NCBI GenBank assembly: GCA_019058365.1
Contig: JAHPZE010000019.1
Coordinates: forward strand, 14,744 to 78,743
Origin: Promethearchaeota archaeon
GTDB taxonomy: Archaea; Asgardarchaeota; Lokiarchaeia; Sigyniarchaeales; SOKP01
Reading direction: 5' to 3'
Length of the DNA stretch: 64,000 bases
In this document: piece by piece, positions 28,911 through 39,282 of the stretch
How positions within the stretch are numbered: position 1 is the stretch's first letter
Layout: each line of letters starts with the position of its first letter
Position numbers and translations under genes: made by a program
The notes under the pieces: generated by a model
The model's input: only the letters and a program-made list of their open reading frames with translations
Databases searched by the model: none
What the model was told of the DNA's origin: nothing

Positions 28911-30035
28911 ATGAGCCGACAACGTAAAGCAAGAAAGCGAAGTAAAACAATTTTCGTGTTTATTTTTATTTGTGGATTTCTTTTAGGTTTTTCTACAACG
29001 AATTTTGTAATTACAAGTAGGGAGCAAAAAACACATATTACGATTATTTATAGTTCTGAAAAGGCAAGTTGGATGACAGTTGCTTATTCAGATTTTATGG
29101 ATGAGTGGCAAATTTCCCATCCGGATGACCCAATAACGATTGACATGCAACCCTATGGCTCTTCAAACTCAATAATTAGTATTCTCAATGGTGAGATTTA
29201 TCCTACTATCTGGAGTCCTGCAAGCTCAATTTGGATGCCATTATTAAACTCTAAATGGGCAGATCTGTCTCATAGTTCCATTCCTATAGTAAATATTAGC
29301 GCTGCAGTTAAAATTATATATTCACCGATAGTAATTGCTACGTGGGAATCTTTTAATCAAACTCACAATATAAAGGGATTCAAAGATGTGCATAATCTGA
29401 CTTTAGATCCAACTGTAAACATTAGAATGGCTCATACTGATCCCCGTTTATCAAATTCAGGTTTTATGACTGTGATAATGGCATTATCTGCTGCTTCTGG
29501 TACTTCTTCAGAGAATTTAACAATGTCTGATCTTACAAATCCCAACAATCAACAATGGTTAAGAGAATTTGAGTCTAGTGCTGTAGTGTATGGAACATCT
29601 ACAGGTTTCTTAGCACGTTATATGAAAGATCAGGGCCCTACTGCTTTGAATATAGCTTTCTTATATGAAAATTTAATAAGAGATATTTCAAGCACAGCTA
29701 CAGGAGGAAAAATCATTGCTATTTATCCAGAGGAAGGTACCTTATATAGTGACCATCCATTTTGTATATTAAATGCTGATTGGATTAGTCCTCAGCAAAG
29801 AATAGTAGCTGAAGCATTCCTTAATTTTCTAAATGAAAATCGAACCGTTATTTCTGCCTTGGAGTATGGATTTAGACCCATTGATCCTTCAATTCCATTA
29901 GATCCTGAAGTATTTAACTATGAGACTAATGGAATTGCCTATGAGCTTAATGTTCCTGAAATGAATACACCATTAGATGGAGATGTATTATTAAAAATCC
30001 CCGATTTATGGTTATTGTGTAAAGCAACAGCATAA
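28911..30035 (+). CDS. ABC transporter substrate-binding protein (type II PBP, family often fused to vWA domains)
   Basis: Basic N-terminus plus TM anchor; IYSSEK..WM, WSPASSIW, HTDP..SNSG, YEN, YPEEGT..SDHPF and GFRP motifs. Confidence 0.85.
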   Translation: MSRQRKARKRSKTIFVFIFICGFLLGFSTTNFVITSREQKTHITIIYSSEKASWMTVAYSDFMDEWQISHPDDPITIDMQPYGSSNSIISILNGEIYPTIWSPASSIWMPLLNSKWADLSHSSIPIVNISAAVKIIYSPIVIATWESFNQTHNIKGFKDVHNLTLDPTVNIRMAHTDPRLSNSGFMTVIMALSAASGTSSENLTMSDLTNPNNQQWLREFESSAVVYGTSTGFLARYMKDQGPTALNIAFLYENLIRDISSTATGGKIIAIYPEEGTLYSDHPFCILNADWISPQQRIVAEAFLNFLNENRTVISALEYGFRPIDPSIPLDPEVFNYETNGIAYELNVPEMNTPLDGDVLLKIPDLWLLCKATA

Positions 30036-30053
30036 GAGAAAATAATAATTAAA

Positions 30054-31730
30054 ATGTTAAAAAAAAATAATAAAGAAAATCAAAGTTTTAAAGAAGAGTA
30101 TCTGGAAGAGGAATTGAAATTACCTCTTAGTCTAAAAATAGACAGATTCTTTTCTAAATCAATATATAGAAAAAGCTTAGATACTATTGTAATTATATTC
30201 TTTATTTTGGTTATTATAGGTCCAATAATTAACATCTTTGCTACAATTCTTTTAAATATTCCTGCAATAAATAAAGATGTTTTTAATGATGAATTATTAG
30301 GTAATTTACAGTGGCTTAACATACTGAGAGCTTTGGGATATTCCTTCTCAATTGCATCTATAGCTGTTGGGTTTGATATTATTATTGCCTTCCCTATTTC
30401 CATAATTTTAACTCGTTATAATTTTAGAGGGAAAAAAATTCTTGATGCTATGGTAGATTTGCCAATGGCAGTTCCTACAAGTGCATTAGGGTTTTCCATA
30501 ATGTTGTTTTGGGGAATATTTGGAATCGAACCTGGATTTACACTGATTTTACTTGGACATATTGTCTTTACCTTTCCATATATTGTACGGAACATGAAGA
30601 TAGTATTAGAAAAAACTGCTACACTTTATGAAGATGCAGCCCGAACCCTTGGTGCTCCAGGGATTACAGTATTTCGAACTATCACAGTTCCGTTGATGAA
30701 GGAAGGATTAATAGCCGGTGCTGTTCTTGCATTTACAAGAAGTTTAGGTGAAACTGGTGCTACAATTATTCTTTCAGGTTTAGTAGAAACTGCGCCAATT
30801 CTTATTGTTGGTTTTAGAAGGCAATTAGAGCTACCATCTGCTTCATTATTAGCAGGAATATTAATAACTGTATCTATTTTGCTATTATTTTCAATAAAAT
30901 TCTTAACGCGTAAAGTAGGAATCCCTGTTAAATCTGTATGGCCAAAAATTGAAAGATTTTTAAGTAAAAAGAATTTAAGATATTTAAGGGATGTTTTAAC
31001 TTTAACAATTCTTTTCGTTGTGATTCTTATCCCTGCTTTTTATATTTTGGTAGAAATTGTTGGAGAGAATATCATAGGGGAAGTATTTTTAGGCCAAGAC
31101 TATAAATGGGTATTTATATATACAAGTTTTATTTATTCAATAGAAATTGGAGCTTTAGCTGTATTTATAAATCTCATTTTTGGAATACCTTTTGCCTTTA
31201 TAATTACAAACCGAAATTGGGGGAAGTTTATTACATTTTTAGATACTATTTTAGACATCCCCATTGCAATTCCTTCAGCAGCTTTAGGATTTGCAACATT
31301 CATGTTTTGGGGGCCAGTTGGTTTAGGATTATTTCAATCTGGGTTTTTTATGATCCTGTTTGTACATGTTGCTTTTACATTTCCATATATGGTTCGACCT
31401 ATTATCGGAGTTTTGGAATCTTCAAATAAAGGTGTCGAGGAAGCTGCTCGTACTTTAGGTGCTTCAAATATGACTGTATTTAGAAAAATTACTCTTCCTA
31501 ATATAAAACAAGGAATGATTGCGGGAGGTATCATGACATTCACACGTTCACTTGGAGAAACAGGTGCAACTATTGTTGTAATGGGAGGTATACGGACTGT
31601 TCCAGTACTAATTGTGGATTTCGTTGAGGCAAATGCTTATGCATCAGGAATCTTTGCTAGTGTTATTGTTATAATTTTTAGTACATTCCTAATTTTTGCT
31701 TTAAGAGCGGTAAGCAAAAAGGGAGGATAA
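30054..31730 (+). CDS. ABC importer permease, two fused CysT/ModB/FbpB-like domains
   Basis: Duplicated DLPMAVPTSALG/DIPIAIPSAALG, two EAA motifs (EDAARTLGA, EEAARTLGA) and two FTRSLGETGAT. Confidence 0.93.
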   Translation: MLKKNNKENQSFKEEYLEEELKLPLSLKIDRFFSKSIYRKSLDTIVIIFFILVIIGPIINIFATILLNIPAINKDVFNDELLGNLQWLNILRALGYSFSIASIAVGFDIIIAFPISIILTRYNFRGKKILDAMVDLPMAVPTSALGFSIMLFWGIFGIEPGFTLILLGHIVFTFPYIVRNMKIVLEKTATLYEDAARTLGAPGITVFRTITVPLMKEGLIAGAVLAFTRSLGETGATIILSGLVETAPILIVGFRRQLELPSASLLAGILITVSILLLFSIKFLTRKVGIPVKSVWPKIERFLSKKNLRYLRDVLTLTILFVVILIPAFYILVEIVGENIIGEVFLGQDYKWVFIYTSFIYSIEIGALAVFINLIFGIPFAFIITNRNWGKFITFLDTILDIPIAIPSAALGFATFMFWGPVGLGLFQSGFFMILFVHVAFTFPYMVRPIIGVLESSNKGVEEAARTLGASNMTVFRKITLPNIKQGMIAGGIMTFTRSLGETGATIVVMGGIRTVPVLIVDFVEANAYASGIFASVIVIIFSTFLIFALRAVSKKGG

Positions 31731-31734
31731 TCTC

Positions 31735-32880
31735 GTGCCCACTATAGAATTAGTGAAAGTTACAAAAACATTTAATGAAGGAAAAGTTCTTGCTGTGGAT
31801 AATATTTCTGTAAGAATTGAGCACGGGGAATATGTTTTTTTAATAGGGCCTACTGGTTGTGGAAAAACTACAACACTTAGAATGATTGCGGGACTTGAAG
31901 AACCAACTAAAGGAAAAGTTTTAATAGATGAAAAAGACGTTAAAGGCATCCCTCCTGAAGATAGAGATATGGGTTTTATTTTTCAGCATTTCGAAATTTT
32001 TGATCATTTAACAATATGGGAAAATGTAACTTTCGGTTTAGAAATGCGAGGCTATGATGATGATTATATCATTAAAGAAGCTGAGAAAGCTCTCAAGACT
32101 GTTGATTTATTACAGTATGCTGATGAGTATCCATCAATTTTTGGAAATCCCGGGCTGCAAAAATTAGGTATAGCTAGAGCTATTGCAACTGGAGCTAAAA
32201 TTTTAATTATGGATGAGCCATTAGGATCTCTAGATCCTAAAGTATCTAAAGTTTTCCGTCATGAATTGAGAAATTTAGTAAAAGATTTGGGTCTTACCGC
32301 TATACATGTCACTCACAATCAAGAAGAATCAATGGCTATAGCCGATAAAATAATTATTATGAGAGGAGGAAAACTTCTTCAAATGGGATCTCCTTATGAA
32401 TTATATGAAAATCCTGATAGTATTTTTGTTGCAAATTTTTTAGGAGAAACAAATTTTCTTCAAGGTTTTGTACTAAAGTTGCTTGAAGATAAAGAAATGG
32501 AAATACGTATTCGTTTAGGTGGTCCTAAATTAAATACTAATAATTTTAATAATAAATTTAATTTAGATGATAATGTAGTAATCGCTTTTCGCTTCGAAAA
32601 TGTATATTTATTTCCAGAAGGTTATGATTTTAAAACTAGTCAATATGATTGGTCAAATATGCAATTCTTTAAAGCAATTTTAGAAAATTCAAGATTTATT
32701 GGAGCAACAAAAAGATTTTACTTATATTTAGATAATGGTGATAAATTTATATCAGTAAAGCCAGGTAATTTTGAGGAAAGCTTTATACCCGGACAAAGAT
32801 TAATAATTGGAATTCACAAAGATGATATCCATGTATTTAAAGCCCCAGAAAACATTCTATATGAACTCTCTTTATCATAG
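31735..32880 (+). CDS. ABC ATPase 1 (degenerate signature motif)
   Basis: Walker A GPTGCGKT, Q-loop Q, Walker B ILIMDE and H-loop VTH intact; LSGGQ replaced by FGNPG; C-terminal TOBE-like region. Confidence 0.93.
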   Translation: MPTIELVKVTKTFNEGKVLAVDNISVRIEHGEYVFLIGPTGCGKTTTLRMIAGLEEPTKGKVLIDEKDVKGIPPEDRDMGFIFQHFEIFDHLTIWENVTFGLEMRGYDDDYIIKEAEKALKTVDLLQYADEYPSIFGNPGLQKLGIARAIATGAKILIMDEPLGSLDPKVSKVFRHELRNLVKDLGLTAIHVTHNQEESMAIADKIIIMRGGKLLQMGSPYELYENPDSIFVANFLGETNFLQGFVLKLLEDKEMEIRIRLGGPKLNTNNFNNKFNLDDNVVIAFRFENVYLFPEGYDFKTSQYDWSNMQFFKAILENSRFIGATKRFYLYLDNGDKFISVKPGNFEESFIPGQRLIIGIHKDDIHVFKAPENILYELSLS

Positions 32881-32891
32881 GTGAAAAACTA

Positions 32892-34115
32892 GTGGTACAT
32901 ATTGAATTGAAAAATGTCTCAAAAAAATTTAGAAATTTCACAGCATTAGATAATATTTCAGTAGAGATTAAAGATAGGGAATACTTTATTATTTTAGGTC
33001 CTACTGGAGCCGGTAAAACTACTTTCCTTAAACTTATCGCGGGACTTCTTAAACCTGATTCTGGAATGATATTTTTTGATGGTAAGGACGTAACCAAAAA
33101 ATCTGCTGGTGAAAGAAACATTGGTTTTATGTTTGAAAACTATGCTTTATTTCCTCATATGAATATTGTCGAAAATATTTCTTACAGTGGTCGGGTTCAT
33201 GCAAGAGATCCTCAAGCCACTCAAACTCTAGTTGATCAAGTCTTAATGATGACTCTATTAACAGGGAGAAATGATGCATATCCAAATGAGTTAAGTGGTG
33301 GAATGAGACAAAGAGTTGCCTTATGTCGATCCTTGCTAAATCTAGAGCAGACAAAATTATTGATTTTAGATGAACCTTTAAAAGCGCTTGATGCTGGACT
33401 TAGAATGAGTTTAAGTAGAGAATTACTCCTAATGGCAAAATCTAAAGAATTAGGCTTGACAGTTGTTCATGTTACCAATGATGAAGAAGAAGCAATGATG
33501 GCTGCTGATAGAATAGCAGTAATTAATCAAGGTAAACTTGTTCAGATTGGGACACCCCATGAAATTTATTATCAACCTAAAGATCTTTTTGTTGCAAACT
33601 TTTTAAGCGAAATCAACTATTTTGAAGGAATTTGTACTAAAAAAGAAATACCAGCATGGGATATTTACAGTAAATCAAAACAAGGAGATAAATTCTTCAA
33701 GAAGATTCAAGAAGATTCGGTTCCAATGCCAATAAATATTGGCTTTAAAAATGTTTTTGCTGGTTATTTAAATGAATCACAATATAATGAAATTCAGCAT
33801 GGAGATAAAGTATTATTAATTGTTCGAGCCAACCACATGAAAATTCGGCTTGGTAATCGTGTTAATGAAAAGAAAAATGCAATCTTAGGAATTATACTCC
33901 GTCGTAAATTTATGGGAGTATTCTACCGATTCGAAATCCTTGTAAAAATAAACCATAAAGATAAAGTTATTGTCGTCACCAGATCAGCCACTTATGAAAT
34001 TCATAAATCATTTTTAGAGAATTCTGAAGTAACATTATATTTTCCAAAAGAGTTAGGGATAATAATCAAGCATCCTGGTGATAATGTAATAAAAGAAGTA
34101 TTAAAATTAGAATAA
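32892..34115 (+). CDS. ABC ATPase 2 (degenerate Q- and H-loops)
   Basis: Walker A GPTGAGKT, signature LSGGM and Walker B LILDE intact; Q-loop FMFE and H-loop VTN altered. Confidence 0.93.
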   Translation: MVHIELKNVSKKFRNFTALDNISVEIKDREYFIILGPTGAGKTTFLKLIAGLLKPDSGMIFFDGKDVTKKSAGERNIGFMFENYALFPHMNIVENISYSGRVHARDPQATQTLVDQVLMMTLLTGRNDAYPNELSGGMRQRVALCRSLLNLEQTKLLILDEPLKALDAGLRMSLSRELLLMAKSKELGLTVVHVTNDEEEAMMAADRIAVINQGKLVQIGTPHEIYYQPKDLFVANFLSEINYFEGICTKKEIPAWDIYSKSKQGDKFFKKIQEDSVPMPINIGFKNVFAGYLNESQYNEIQHGDKVLLIVRANHMKIRLGNRVNEKKNAILGIILRRKFMGVFYRFEILVKINHKDKVIVVTRSATYEIHKSFLENSEVTLYFPKELGIIIKHPGDNVIKEVLKLE

Positions 34116-34169
34116 AAATAATAAATAATATTGAAATAAAGAAGAATATAAAAATAAAAGGGATATTTT

Positions 34170-34856
34170 ATGAGTTCTTTAATGGAATGGTTTAAATCTC
34201 GGAATGAAGAAAATGCAATGAATTTAGCTTTAGTTCATACTCAGAAAGTTCTTGAATGTATTGTTGAATTTGATAAAGGTCTATCTTTTCTTCTTGAGGA
34301 AAAAAATATTGATCTTGCGTTAAAAGTTTTTTTCCGAGTTGATGAATTAGAACACCAAGCTGATGGAATCCGCAGAAATATTTTAAATATGATATCTCAA
34401 GCTGAACTTCCATCTAAAATCCGTGAGAATTTAATGCATCTTGTTAAAAGAATTGATGACATTGCGAATGCAGCCAATGCGAGTGCTAGGATTCTCATCT
34501 CCATGAATCATATGGATTTTATGAGCTTGGGGGATGATGTTCATAAAAATATCTTGGAGATTTCAAGAATTTCAGTAGAAGCTGTTAAAAAAGTAAATAA
34601 AATGGTAGACCTATTATTAAAAGCAGAGGAAGTAAATATCCAGAGGTTAGGAGAAGAAGTGAATAAGTTAGAACATCAATGTGATGAAAAGCATTACGCA
34701 ATAAGTAGAAGTTTAGTATCAAGCAATCTACAAATTAATCCATTTAGCGCAATTGTAATTTACAATTGTATCTCTGCCATGGAAGCAATTAGTGATAATG
34801 CAGAGGATGTAGCTGATTATATAATAATGCTTACATTAGCAAAAAGACTAAAATAA
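34170..34856 (+). CDS. DUF47/PhoU-like phosphate transport regulator
   Basis: LEHQADGIRR, IDDIAN, LEHQCDE and EAISDNAEDVAD duplicated ExxxD motifs. Confidence 0.9.
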   Translation: MSSLMEWFKSRNEENAMNLALVHTQKVLECIVEFDKGLSFLLEEKNIDLALKVFFRVDELEHQADGIRRNILNMISQAELPSKIRENLMHLVKRIDDIANAANASARILISMNHMDFMSLGDDVHKNILEISRISVEAVKKVNKMVDLLLKAEEVNIQRLGEEVNKLEHQCDEKHYAISRSLVSSNLQINPFSAIVIYNCISAMEAISDNAEDVADYIIMLTLAKRLK

Positions 34857-34901: not shown

Positions 34902-35519
34902 TTAAAGATTTAGTACTTTTTTTTGCTTTTCAGTATTTTGTTTTAAAAGAATTATTGATTTTTCTCTCGCTTTTAACATTGATCTTTCCTTAACTCCTTT
35001 CATTTCATTAGAGGGTAGAATTTCTTCCTTTAACACTCTTTTAAAAAGTAAATATTCATCTTTTCTAGAGATAAATGGATCAACCCTCTCATCATGAATA
35101 AATTCCTCAATTGAAGTATTTTTTCCATTACAATTCCCTTCAGTAAGATCGAAACGATAATCTTTATACACTAAAAAACAATGTGCCATTGGTACATAGG
35201 GAAGTTTATACTTATTTAATATTTCATTTGTGCCTGTTGAGATTACCTCAGTGAGTTTATAAACACCGACATGCTTAAAAAGAGGTATTTCTAATTCTTC
35301 AGCAAGACCTGCTATAACTGCATGTTTAGATGTGCAAGTGCCTTTTTTTTCTTTAAAAAAAATTAATTTGTCATCATAATTTGTATTGTATCCATATTCA
35401 ATACCATGCACGTAATTACAAGCATCCTTGAAATTTTTAATTCTAAGTTCCAAGAATTTTTTTGATATTTCTCCTACAGGTTTAATTTCAGCATCCGGCA
35501 AGTTGTTATATGAATCCAT
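34902..35519 (-). CDS. Hypothetical protein, transglutaminase-like Cys-His-Asp fold
   Basis: GTCTSKH...AHCFL...FDLT putative triad. Confidence 0.65.
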   Translation of the reverse strand: MDSYNNLPDAEIKPVGEISKKFLELRIKNFKDACNYVHGIEYGYNTNYDDKLIFFKEKKGTCTSKHAVIAGLAEELEIPLFKHVGVYKLTEVISTGTNEILNKYKLPYVPMAHCFLVYKDYRFDLTEGNCNGKNTSIEEFIHDERVDPFISRKDEYLLFKRVLKEEILPSNEMKGVKERSMLKAREKSIILLKQNTEKQKKVLNL

Positions 35520-35668: not shown

Positions 35669-36322
35669 TTAGGTAATCTCTTTATGCTCACCGGTTACCA
35701 TATAATGAACTTTCTCAGCGATTTTACATGCATTATCCCCACATCTTTCCAAATATCTTGAAATCATAATGAAGAAAGCACATGGTGTAATTGTTTTAGC
35801 ATCCTCCATCATATAAGTTATACATTCTCTAAATATCGACCATCTCATTTCATCAATCTCATCGTCTCTTTGTTCAAAATTTGCATAATATTTACTATCC
35901 GATTCTTCAAAAGCTTTCAAAGCATCGACAATCATAGATTTTGTATGTTCCCACATATGCTGTATATTAACAAATGGTGCAGGATAAGGTTTCTTTCTTG
36001 ATAACTCTTCTACCACTGAAGCAATATCTTTTCCATATCTCCCTATTCTAGCAAGATAAGTAATCATTTTTAAAATTGTAGCTAATCTTCTTAGATCTAT
36101 TGCCATTGGTTGGTATAATGCAATTAATCTCAAAGCTTTTGCTTCTATATCTGCATCCAATTCTCTTATCTTATGTTTCTTGTTCACTGTAACTTTAGCT
36201 AATTCGATATCCTGAGTTGCTAAAGCTTTCATTGCATCGTCTAACATTCCTAAGACTAAATTACCCATATCGCCAATTTCTTTCTTTAATGCAAAAATTT
36301 CTTTACGCATTTCTTTTGCCAT
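35669..36322 (-). CDS. phoU: Phosphate signalling protein PhoU
   Basis: QPMAIDLR, L.RIG, DDEID and YLERCGD; directly downstream of pstB. Confidence 0.95.
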   Translation of the reverse strand: MAKEMRKEIFALKKEIGDMGNLVLGMLDDAMKALATQDIELAKVTVNKKHKIRELDADIEAKALRLIALYQPMAIDLRRLATILKMITYLARIGRYGKDIASVVEELSRKKPYPAPFVNIQHMWEHTKSMIVDALKAFEESDSKYYANFEQRDDEIDEMRWSIFRECITYMMEDAKTITPCAFFIMISRYLERCGDNACKIAEKVHYMVTGEHKEIT

Positions 36323-36333
36323 TAAAAATCCAC

Positions 36334-37167
36334 CTAACCAAATCTTCCTGTTATATAATTTTCTGTTAATTCTTGCTTAGGATTTTCAAAAATTTGGGTA
36401 GTTTCACCAAATTCGATCATTTTTCCTAAATACATAAGACCCGTATAATCACTTATTCTTGCTGCTTGTTGCATATTATGGGTAACAATTATCACTGTCC
36501 ATTCTCTCTTCAATTCAAGTATTAATTCTTCAATTTTTTGTGTTGCTATTGGATCAAGAGACGCTGTTGGTTCATCCATTAAAAGTATTTCAGGTTTAAC
36601 TGCTAAAGCTCTCGCTATACATAGTCTTTGTTGTTGCCCTCCGGATAATCCCAACGCAGATTCATCTAGTCTCTCATAGACCTCATCCCATAATACTGCT
36701 CTCTTAAGACATCTCTCTGTAATTTCATCTAAGATTTTATCTCCAATAATTTTATGAATTTTTGGACCATATGTAATATTGTCATATATAGTCATCGGAA
36801 AAGGATTAGGTTTCTGAAAGATCATTCCAATCTTTTTTCTATTCAATCTTACATCAGCACCTTTAGCATAGAGGTTCTTGCCTTGAAATAGAACTTCACC
36901 TTCAATTCTACATCCATCTATTACATCATTCATTCGATTTAAACATCGTAATAATGTACTTTTACCACATCCAGATGGTCCAATAATAGCAGTTACTTCG
37001 TTTTTTTTAAATTTCATATTGATATCTATCAATGCCTGTGTCTCATCATACCAAAGATTCAAATTTTTACATTCAATTATTATTTCATTTTGATTTTTAC
37101 TTACATCATTCATGCTATTCTCTTTTTCGATTTTTGTTTTATTTCTATTATTAATTTTTAAAACCAA
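36334..37167 (-). CDS. pstB: Phosphate ABC transporter ATPase
   Basis: [51 protein letters not shown] and YITGRFG. Confidence 0.98.
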
Positions 37168-37173
37168 GGTATA

Positions 37174-39282
37174 TCACCATTGTTTTCTTTTTTCATATTT
37201 TGTTCTTACAATAAATGCTATGCCATAAAATATTAATACCAACAATAGTAAGGTTAGAGCTGTCCCAGCAGCTTCTTCTACTGAGAATAATGCTTCAGTT
37301 AATAATCTATAAAGATGATATGTAAGAGCCATTACAGGCTCAAAAACTGATAAAACAAGCCAGAACCTAGAAGAAGTTCTGACAGCAGTAAACATGATAG
37401 GAGCTGTTTCTCCTGCGCTTCGTCCCATTCCTAAAACTGCCCCCGTAACAATTCCAGGTAATGCTGCAGGGATTACAATTTTACTGATTCCTTGCCATTT
37501 ACTTGAACCTAAAGCCAGGCTACCTTCTCTAAACGCCTGAGGAATTGCTTTTACTGCTTCTTCAGTAGTTCTTATTATTGTAGGAAGTATCATTAAACCT
37601 AAAGTTAACATTCCAGCTAATAATGATTTCATAAGTCCAAATAGCACCAGAAAGAGCACAACTCCAAATAGGGCAAATACAATTGATGGTGTACCATTTA
37701 AATTATCAATTCCAGAACGTATAATTTTAGTGATTTTATTGTCTTTAGCATATTCAGAAAGATAAATCCCTGCACACATACCAAGAGGCAGGGCAAAGGC
37801 AATAGAGCCTAATGTGAGTTGAATAGTTCCAGTAATTGCAGGAAGTATTCCTCCTTCCATTGAAGTACCTGTAAGAAAATTGGGTCTAAATATGACAGGA
37901 AGTCCTTTTGATATAATATAATATAGTAATATTCCCACAGTAATCACTGCAACTGAAGAACATAGATAAATAATTATAAACCAAAATTTTTCTTGACCTA
38001 CAGAAGAAATTTTTCTGAAAGTGAGCATAACTACTATAATTGACGCACATACTAAGATAGCTAAGGATATTCCAATCCAAGTACTAAGCACCCATCCCAC
38101 AAACAACAAAATAACGCCATATACTATCCATTTTTTATATTTTTGAGGAACTTTTTTATGAAAATAAATAGCTAAGCTTAATCCTAAACAGATTATTACT
38201 CCAATCACTTTAGAAGCTAAATCAGGTAATATGAAAGCAATTAGTCCAGAAATAAGTATAGGTAATATTAAATTTTTATATTTTTTAATAAAGTTGAATA
38301 ATTTGGATTCTCTAAGTTTTGAGTGTTTTTCTTTTTGTTTTTCTCCTGTAAATCTTCTTCGAATTCGAGATAATATGACATTTGCGCCTGTATTAACAAC
38401 CAGAGTCATTATAAATAGCGTTATTCCTAAAGCAAAATAACTCCTCCATTCTATACTATTTGTTTCAGTTGGTCCCAATCCTAATCCTATCGTTGAAGTT
38501 ATTACTGCTACACAAGAGAACATATTTGTTATTGGTTCGGGAAGAATTTTACAATTTCCAATAACTAACATCATCGCCATAGTTTCACCTAATGCTCGAC
38601 CAATACCTAAAATCATAGCAGCAGTAATGCCAGACATGCCTGCGGGAATCACTACCTTACGTATAGTTTGCCATTTTGTTGCTCCCATAGCATAAGATGC
38701 ATCTCTATAGTAATCTGGAACAGCTCTAATTGAATCTTCACATACTGATACAATTGTAGGTAAAGCCATTATTGCTAAAATTAAAGAGCCCGATAACCAT
38801 GTGTTTCCATGATGTAAACCGAAAATATCTCTTATCCATATATTTAATACAACAAGTCCAAAGAAGCCATACACAATAGAGGGAATACCTGCAAGTATTT
38901 CTATACTAAATTTGAGAATCTTCCTAAGTTTTGATGGTGCAAGTTCAGCTATAAAAATAGCAGTCATTAATCCTAATGGTAGTGCAATGATTATTGCTCC
39001 GAATGTAACTAAAAGTGTATCAACAATAATTGGTAAAGCCCCGAAATCTCCATTTGTAGGCAACCAGTTTGTACCAAAAAGAAATTCAGTAAGAGTGACT
39101 TTAGCAAAGAAAGGAGCTCCAGTTATAAATAGAAATATTATTATTAAAAATACAAAAATAGTAGCAATAGAAGCAATGAAAAACAGAATCCATTTAATAA
39201 TAGGATCTCTATTTTTTTTTAAATAAGAGTAATCTTCATTATAGATATACAGCTTATTTTCAAAATCAATTTCTGTCGACAT
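37174..39282 (-). CDS. pstCA: Fused phosphate ABC permease PstC-PstA
   Basis: N-half LAGIPSIVYGFFG...GRALGETMA (PstC); C-half LNGTPSIVFALFG...GRSAGETAP (PstA); single uninterrupted ORF. Confidence 0.93.
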   Translation of the reverse strand: MSTEIDFENKLYIYNEDYSYLKKNRDPIIKWILFFIASIATIFVFLIIIFLFITGAPFFAKVTLTEFLFGTNWLPTNGDFGALPIIVDTLLVTFGAIIIALPLGLMTAIFIAELAPSKLRKILKFSIEILAGIPSIVYGFFGLVVLNIWIRDIFGLHHGNTWLSGSLILAIMALPTIVSVCEDSIRAVPDYYRDASYAMGATKWQTIRKVVIPAGMSGITAAMILGIGRALGETMAMMLVIGNCKILPEPITNMFSCVAVITSTIGLGLGPTETNSIEWRSYFALGITLFIMTLVVNTGANVILSRIRRRFTGEKQKEKHSKLRESKLFNFIKKYKNLILPILISGLIAFILPDLASKVIGVIICLGLSLAIYFHKKVPQKYKKWIVYGVILLFVGWVLSTWIGISLAILVCASIIVVMLTFRKISSVGQEKFWFIIIYLCSSVAVITVGILLYYIISKGLPVIFRPNFLTGTSMEGGILPAITGTIQLTLGSIAFALPLGMCAGIYLSEYAKDNKITKIIRSGIDNLNGTPSIVFALFGVVLFLVLFGLMKSLLAGMLTLGLMILPTIIRTTEEAVKAIPQAFREGSLALGSSKWQGISKIVIPAALPGIVTGAVLGMGRSAGETAPIMFTAVRTSSRFWLVLSVFEPVMALTYHLYRLLTEALFSVEEAAGTALTLLLLVLIFYGIAFIVRTKYEKRKQW

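Follow-up and report, generated by a model that had tools for sequence, protein, structure and literature searches.

In the genome of a Loki-type Promethearchaeota archaeon (Asgard group) of the SOKP01 lineage (GCA_019058365.1), we analyzed a stretch of 64,000 nt (contig JAHPZE010000019.1, positions 14,744 to 78,743), called here the window, which contains a five-gene operon on the + strand (28911-34856). The operon encodes, in this order, a substrate-binding protein, a fused permease, two ATP-binding cassette (ABC) ATPases, named here ATPase 1 and ATPase 2, and a DUF47 protein, with intergenic gaps of 18, 4, 11, and 54 nt. It has the features of a type I importer, namely a linked binding protein, two BPD_transp_1 domains with EAA loops, and ATPases of the MalK/PotA/CysA kind. 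Public records label both ATPase genes merely as ABC transporter ATP-binding protein.

ATPase 1 (31735..32880, +; 381 amino acids, aa) and ATPase 2 (32892..34115, +; 407 aa) both start with GTG. Each has an ABC_tran domain (E 1.1e-27 and E 4.6e-30, respectively), followed by a C-terminal TOBE_2 domain in the former (E 1.3e-4) and by a beta-rich C-terminal domain in the latter. The two proteins share 38% identity over the ATPase domain, and the closest solved relatives of both are MalK-like proteins, PotA, ModC, CysA, and FbpC. The AlphaFold2 (AF2) model of ATPase 2 is confident at residues ~1-250 (ATPase domain) and 300-395 (beta-rich domain), and between these regions lies a low-confidence insert (residues 251-298; 33642..33785, +) with a predicted local distance difference test (pLDDT) score <50 and no Pfam match. 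The C-terminal part of this protein is gappy in an alignment of 14 orthologues, with 478 columns against 407 aa.

The register of the catalytic motifs, all on the + strand, was checked by HMMER alignment to solved importer ATPases (1v43 and 2it1). ATPase 1 has intact Walker A (GPTGCGKTT, 31846-31872), Q-loop (Q84, 31984-31986), Walker B (ILIMDEP, 32200-32220), and H-loop (H194, 32314-32316) motifs, and FGNPG (32140-32154) is aligned under the LSGGQ signature of 1v43, the signature Ser and both Gly being gone. ATPase 2 has preserved Walker A (GPTGAGKTT, 32997-33023) and Walker B (LLILDEP, 33357-33377) motifs and an intact signature, LSGGM (33291-33305), with two changes elsewhere: E82 (33135-33137, codon GAA) lies under the Q-loop Gln of 2it1 and N196 (33477-33479, codon AAT) under its H-loop His. 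An initial annotation of this DNA had described the same intact motifs and FGNPG in ATPase 1, as well as LSGGM, the Q to E change at 33135, and the H to N change at 33477 in ATPase 2, and every one of these positions was recovered.

In ABC transporters each ATP site is composite: one subunit supplies the Walker A and B motifs, the Q-loop, and the H-loop, and its partner supplies the signature. Site 1, formed by Walker A/B, Q84, and H194 of ATPase 1 with LSGGM of ATPase 2, is therefore fully consensus. Site 2, formed by Walker A/B, E82, and N196 of ATPase 2 with FGNPG of ATPase 1, gathers all the defects, and in this genome it retains the Walker A lysine, the Walker B Asp-Glu pair, and the A-loop Phe. 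A homodimer of either ATPase would have two defective sites and the mixed pair alone an intact one, so an obligate heterodimer is expected. Judging from the motifs, we suggest, with a probability of about 0.8, that the five genes form one type I importer driven by an obligate ATPase 1/ATPase 2 heterodimer with one catalytic site.

The pair was searched in 41 related genomes and then in 301 genomes of the phylum, which gave an orthologous set of 62 ATPase 1/ATPase 2 pairs from 12 Asgard families. For site 1, eight key positions were compared: in ATPase 1, the Lys of Walker A, the Gln of the Q-loop, the Asp-Glu of Walker B, and the His of the H-loop; in ATPase 2, the Ser-Gly-Gly of the signature. 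They show zero substitutions in 62 of 62 pairs, and site 2 has at least 3 substitutions in each of the pairs, a pattern that exceeds chance. The Q-loop residue of ATPase 2 is E in 60 of the 62 and A in the other 2; its H-loop residue is N in 45, H in 16, and Q in 1; and its Walker B Glu is changed to Asp in 8 pairs and to Gln in 7. The ATPase 1 signature never has the form xSGGx. It is LSAPE-like in most families, with LNTPE, LTAPQ, WGNGD, and VAAAD as other variants and FGNPG in the family of this genome. Among 14 diverse orthologues, K44, Q84, D160, E161, and H194 of ATPase 1 and S135, G136, and G137 of ATPase 2 are invariant, these columns being precisely those of site 1, E82 is nearly so, and the Walker A Lys and the H-loop residue of ATPase 2 vary. 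Hence, the placement of all three defects in one composite site, with the other site consensus, proved correct and holds in 62/62 Asgard pairs. A comparison of orthologous pairs across archaea had been proposed as a check; the complementary pattern is found in all of the Asgard pairs, and no true orthologue has canonical motifs. The most extreme dead site belongs to one family, f18: in its loci L064, L066, L067, L068, L069, and L070, ATPase 2 no longer has its Walker A lysine (e.g., GPTGAGPSE), its Walker B reads DQP, and an A-loop aromatic residue is absent, with ATPase 1 in full consensus except for the signature.

These data bear on a first alternative, in which both sites hydrolyse ATP, the substitutions are tolerated lineage variants, and two ATP are spent per cycle as in MalFGK2. 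The retention of the Walker A lysine and the Walker B Asp-Glu in ATPase 2 of this genome fits such a view, as does the chemical closeness of Glu to Gln, and E82 is itself conserved (60/62) and hence selected for something. However, the ATPase 1 signature here is without its Ser and both Gly, and none of the 62 orthologues has the form xSGGx. Sister lineages add Walker B changes (E to D or Q) and the loss of the Walker A lysine, the path of a site freed from catalysis, and site 1 has no change at the corresponding positions. In ABC ATPases, hydrolysis is known to be lost on mutation of the H-loop His or of the signature Ser/Gly (PMC3971661, PMC7756269). We consider two active sites unlikely.

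The 62 pairs also address whether one gene is simply decaying after duplication, with motif changes that are neutral erosion without functional meaning. The ATPase 1 signature does vary by family (FGNPG, WGNGD, LSAPE, VAAAD), as would be expected for a relaxed segment. On the other hand, the median pairwise ratio of nonsynonymous to synonymous substitution rates (dN/dS) among 14 close orthologues is 0.08 for ATPase 1 and 0.10 for ATPase 2, contradicting neutral erosion, and both genes are under purifying selection. No complete pair has a broken reading frame; the sole internal stop is one TAA in a fragment at a contig end (L020). The pair was kept over phylum-level divergence with the site 1 residues invariant, and erosion is restricted to one site and not to one gene, which marks an asymmetric machine that has been maintained. 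Pseudogene decay was rejected on dN/dS, and erosion without meaning is extremely improbable. The view of the initial annotation, that the complementary pattern reflects selection and not decay, is thus borne out by dN/dS values of ~0.1 in both genes and by the pattern itself in 62/62 pairs.

The heterodimer has to be weighed against a further alternative, in which the ATPases do not pair: they would form homodimers under different conditions, or ATPase 2 would be a regulatory ATP-binding subunit outside the motor. Homodimers are the rule for the PotA, CysA, and ModC relatives, a Thermoproteota (Bathyarchaeia-type) version of the operon has a single ATPase, and ATPase 2 has an unusual C-terminal part with its 48-residue low-confidence insert. 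Against this, the two genes are adjacent in all 62 loci (11 nt apart here) and their defects are strictly complementary; an ATPase 1 homodimer would have two sites without a signature, and an ATPase 2 homodimer two sites without the Q-loop Gln and the H-loop His. Alternative homodimers were rejected because the defects are complementary across the 62 pairs. In addition, the permease, whose stop lies 4 nt ahead of the ATPase 1 start, has two different EAA loops. It is a fused two-half protein of 558 aa (30054..31730, +), CysT/W- and ModB-like, with two BPD_transp_1 stretches, and the loops are found in its N-terminal half (30630..30695, +; EDAARTLGAPG..., residues 193-214) and C-terminal half (31437..31502, +; EEAARTLGAS..., residues 462-483). 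An EAA loop is the docking site for one ATPase, and each loop of this fused permease may thus dock one of the two. Unpaired ATPases seem very unlikely to us.

Maximum-likelihood trees of the ATPase domains place the degenerate ATPase 1 proteins together in a single clade, with a Shimodaira-Hasegawa-like approximate likelihood ratio test (SH-aLRT) support of 98. A single clade is likewise recovered for the ATPase 2 proteins (SH-aLRT 84 in a tree of 87 rows and 94 in one of 130 rows). Since each ATPase is one clade, we conclude that the pair arose once. ATPase 2 clusters (SH-aLRT 95) with the GPTGAGKTT-class first ATPase of another operon, the canonical two-ATPase operon, in which the ATPase 2-like gene precedes the ATPase 1-like gene, the reverse of the order in the window, and which has a fused permease and usually adjoins DUF47. 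Both of its sites are consensus, save for single substitutions in a few lineages. This canonical form was found in the Asgard families f17, f19, f26, and f32, in a Thermoplasmata metagenome-assembled genome (MAG), in the best 20 loci of 301 Thermoplasmatota genomes, and in several Thermoproteota. In 19 of the best 30 Thermoproteota loci, the permease is accompanied by one canonical ATPase, 7 of these adjoining DUF47; the first single-ATPase example that we met was in a Bathyarchaeia MAG (Thermoproteota). Three states of the operon family can therefore be distinguished, with a single ATPase, with two canonical ATPases, or with an ATPase pair that has a degenerate site. Because canonical two-ATPase versions are common in archaea, the heterodimer should be older than the degeneracy.

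The degenerate form was seen only in Asgard genomes among the samples searched. All 80 non-Asgard relatives among the matches listed have canonical motifs; this set held no Asgard record and serves as a control only, not as a distribution test. In Thermoproteota and Thermoplasmatota (301 genomes of each), the best matches have single or paired ATPases, and their key catalytic residues are canonical except in three Thermoproteota loci with one substitution each, and the degenerate form was not found among these top matches. An exhaustive HMMER search of 1.84 billion representatives revealed a degenerate signature in about ten clusters (formed at 50% identity). All of them best match Asgard loci, with 43-100% identity, and the named ones are Asgard; two clusters, P0130 and P0140, are just 43-45% identical to an Asgard locus and their origin is unconfirmed.

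Some side observations concern the same relatives. The single substitutions in canonical two-ATPase operons occur at L189 and L191 (Thermoproteota), L195, L050/L051 (f19), and L077 (f32), and consist of H to N in the ATPase 2-like H-loop or of LSEG, LSRG, or LSSG as the ATPase 1-like signature. All of them fall in the composite site that is degenerate in the window and none in the other site. One f26 genome contains, beside its usual canonical operon, a degenerate pair 77% identical to that of the window (L039, G267:C73:2471-3613), which could be either a bin contamination or the result of a recent transfer. The DUF47 gene adjoins the ATPase genes in ~16/40 Asgard, 11/30 Thermoproteota, and 19/20 Thermoplasmatota loci, covering all three operon types, many of the scored loci ending within a few kb of the ATPase genes.

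Returning to the heterodimer with one catalytic site, the following cycle can be proposed. ATPase 1 and ATPase 2 would each be seated on one EAA loop, making the whole transporter asymmetric. Site 1 would hydrolyse ATP and reset the pump, and site 2 is predicted to be hydrolysis-deficient; exporters with such degenerate sites operate on one catalytic site (PMC3971661, PMC7756269). In this genome site 2 probably still binds Mg-ATP, like TM287/288 or TmrAB (PMC3971661, PMC7756565), since the Walker A lysine, the Walker B acids, and the A-loop Phe are retained. It could then act as a stable latch that keeps both subunits together, and one ATP would be spent per cycle. We infer the heterodimerisation, the loss of hydrolysis at site 2, its retained nucleotide binding, and the energetic benefit from the arrangement of the motifs.

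Several points weigh against this picture. The Walker A Lys of ATPase 2 is replaced by Pro in 6 pairs, all from f18, and the A-loop aromatic residue is missing from ATPase 2 in several of the more degenerate lineages, so the binding of ATP at site 2 does not hold for the system as a whole. In this genome, Mg2+ could still be coordinated by the Q-loop Glu, and the Asn may partly replace the H-loop His, so that some residual turnover at site 2 may persist. Finally, the position of the ATPase 1 clade with respect to its canonical relatives is poorly resolved in the trees, and for this reason we do not claim an ancestral canonical form. The lineages without the Walker A lysine suggest that even nucleotide binding at site 2 is dispensable. 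As read from these sequences, the loss of this lysine also argues against a nucleotide sensor, the role that the initial annotation had considered for the dead site, as its general function.

The three operon states might represent a natural series, from one canonical ATPase to two canonical ones and then to a pair in which one site was progressively dismantled, up to the loss of the Walker A lysine. As the few single substitutions in otherwise canonical pairs suggest by falling in the same site, a functional asymmetry would predate the degeneracy, and DUF47 may have come to dock on the dead site or on the unusual C-terminal part of ATPase 2. We hold this series only as a tentative possibility; if it is true, binding-protein-dependent import would be shown to need one catalytic ATP site only. 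Whether or not an ABC importer spends two ATP per cycle is an old question, on which studies of mutants disagree between the histidine system and the maltose system (PMC3971661). A natural type I importer with one degenerate site would be ready-made for work on ATP stoichiometry and on the role of the non-catalytic site, with the one- and two-ATPase canonical relatives of the operon as built-in controls. For Asgard physiology, archaea limited in energy would plausibly benefit if uptake cost them half the ATP.

The first gene of the operon (28911..30035, +) encodes a membrane-anchored substrate-binding protein of 374 aa (Pfam SBP_bac_11, E 1.9e-13). Its AF2 model has a pLDDT of 91 and an N-terminal helix at residues 12-35. 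The best fold matches are the sulfate-binding proteins 5um2, 1sbp, and 6ddn, followed by AfuA, PotD/F, and FbpA, at 12-15% identity, and comparison of the model with Sbp, AfuA, and PotD indicates a class II solute-binding protein. It has no sequence match in the Protein Data Bank (PDB) and no NCBIfam match, and because the fold match is at the family level only, no cargo can be assigned. One public source calls the orthologues of this protein 'Ca-activated chloride channel family protein', a label that looks wrong given the class II solute-binding fold. The invariant motif S102-P-A-S105 stands directly before a helix at 108, and the invariant S181-N-S-G184 and S230-T-G232 stand at helices starting at 182 and 231. 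As modelled, this Ser/Thr/Gly geometry near helix starts seems typical of oxyanion binders and suggests, together with the fold, that the cargo may be an oxyanion or a phosphorylated compound. A loose hint at phosphorus comes from the DUF47 partner and from the pst genes nearby.

NCBIfam models gave no firmer assignment. Each half of the permease is matched by models of sulfate, molybdate, and tungstate permeases, all below their cut-offs except modB (TIGR02141), which is passed with 204.2 bits against 182.6 in a match spanning two stretches of the fused protein. The permease fails the longer NF006939 model (182.9 vs 262), as well as TIGR00969 (232 vs 240) and WtpB (186 vs 340), and is matched weakly by the ThiP and PhnU2 models. 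No ModA- or ModC-type partner is present in the operon. The ATPases remain below the cut-offs of WtpC (210-240 vs 440), PotA (268 and 262 vs 482), and PhnT2 (271 and 276 vs 458), and they match the FbpC model below cut-off as well, as ATPase 1 does the CysA model. Assignment to CysPTWA, ModABC, or WtpABC is not supported, since neither the ATPases nor the binding protein reach the equivalog cut-offs and modB alone was passed; nor are PotABCD and PhnSTUV supported by the ATPase equivalog cut-offs. An ESM Atlas look-up returned only generic PotA, WtpC, and CysA clusters.

The final gene of the operon (34170..34856, +) encodes a DUF47/PhoU_div protein of 228 aa (PF01865, E 2.2e-24; PhoU domain, E 9.7e-7). 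A type I phosphodiesterase-like gene lies upstream of the operon. Downstream, a complete phosphate uptake set (phoU-pstB-pstCA, 35669-39282, -) is convergent to it, and between the DUF47 gene and phoU there is a 205-aa protein (34902-35519, -) with no Pfam or NCBIfam match. The neighbouring PhoU is above its equivalog cut-off; PstB (36334-37167) is a single canonical ATPase with LSGGQ, in a 277-aa open reading frame that includes an N-terminal extension; and PstC-PstA is a fused permease of 702 aa. The operon is patchy: with the query used, it was detected in 9 of the 21 genomes searched in the genus and in 29 of the 68 in the family, and several genomes with a completeness rating of 99-100% did not yield it, which suggests an accessory system.

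Compared with known systems, the operon resembles PstSCAB-PhoU in being an ABC importer operon that ends in a PhoU-fold protein. It differs in that DUF47 belongs to the divergent PhoU_div family, and the PstB next to it is single and canonical. A regulatory contact of DUF47 with the ATPase pair may be imagined. Systems such as FbpABC, AfuABC, ThiBPQ, and those like PhnSTUV combine a cluster-D binding protein and a fused permease with a homodimeric ATPase from one gene. The Asgard system is close to FbpABC, AfuABC, and ThiBPQ in its binding-protein fold, which matches Sbp, AfuA, FbpA, and a thiamine binder, and in its permease, a single polypeptide with two halves. Unlike all of these and PhnSTUV, it has two ATPase genes with complementary defects, plus DUF47, and their cargo is not transferable to it because neither the binding protein nor the ATPases reach any NCBIfam cut-off.

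Among importers, the fused-ATPase systems RbsA and NupO of Bacillus subtilis have been predicted from sequence to contain one non-competent ATP site (PMC11466899), which is the likeness they share with the Asgard pair. RbsA and NupO belong to another importer class and family, carry both ATPase domains on a single chain, and lack the lysine of the second Walker A motif. The Asgard pair, on the contrary, is encoded by two genes of the PotA/CysA/WtpC kind and retains the Walker A lysine in this genome. The initial annotation had described the design with one degenerate site as well known in heterodimeric exporters; it is not exclusive to exporters, as RbsA and NupO indicate (PMC11466899). In the literature searched, which included DUF47 with ABC transporters, only exporter work and the remark on RbsA and NupO were found, with no degenerate site in a type I importer with separate PotA/CysA-like subunits or in an Asgard ABC system; a paper on DppABCDF mentions degenerate sites merely as an alignment reference.

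The closest parallel is given by the heterodimeric exporters, in which all the deviations collect in one composite site and the other is consensus (PMC3971661, PMC7756269). Like TM287/288, TmrAB, BmrCD, TAP1/2, and CFTR/ABCC, the Asgard system has two different ATPase domains that form one consensus and one degenerate site, and the Walker B change from E to D in some Asgard ATPase 2 proteins is the one described for TM287/288 (PMC3971661). Those exporters have a type IV fold with transmembrane and ATPase domains fused, whereas the Asgard system is a type I importer with separate PotA/CysA-like ATPases with C-terminal beta domains, a BPD_transp_1 permease, and DUF47. The principle of a single degenerate site is textbook knowledge for exporters.

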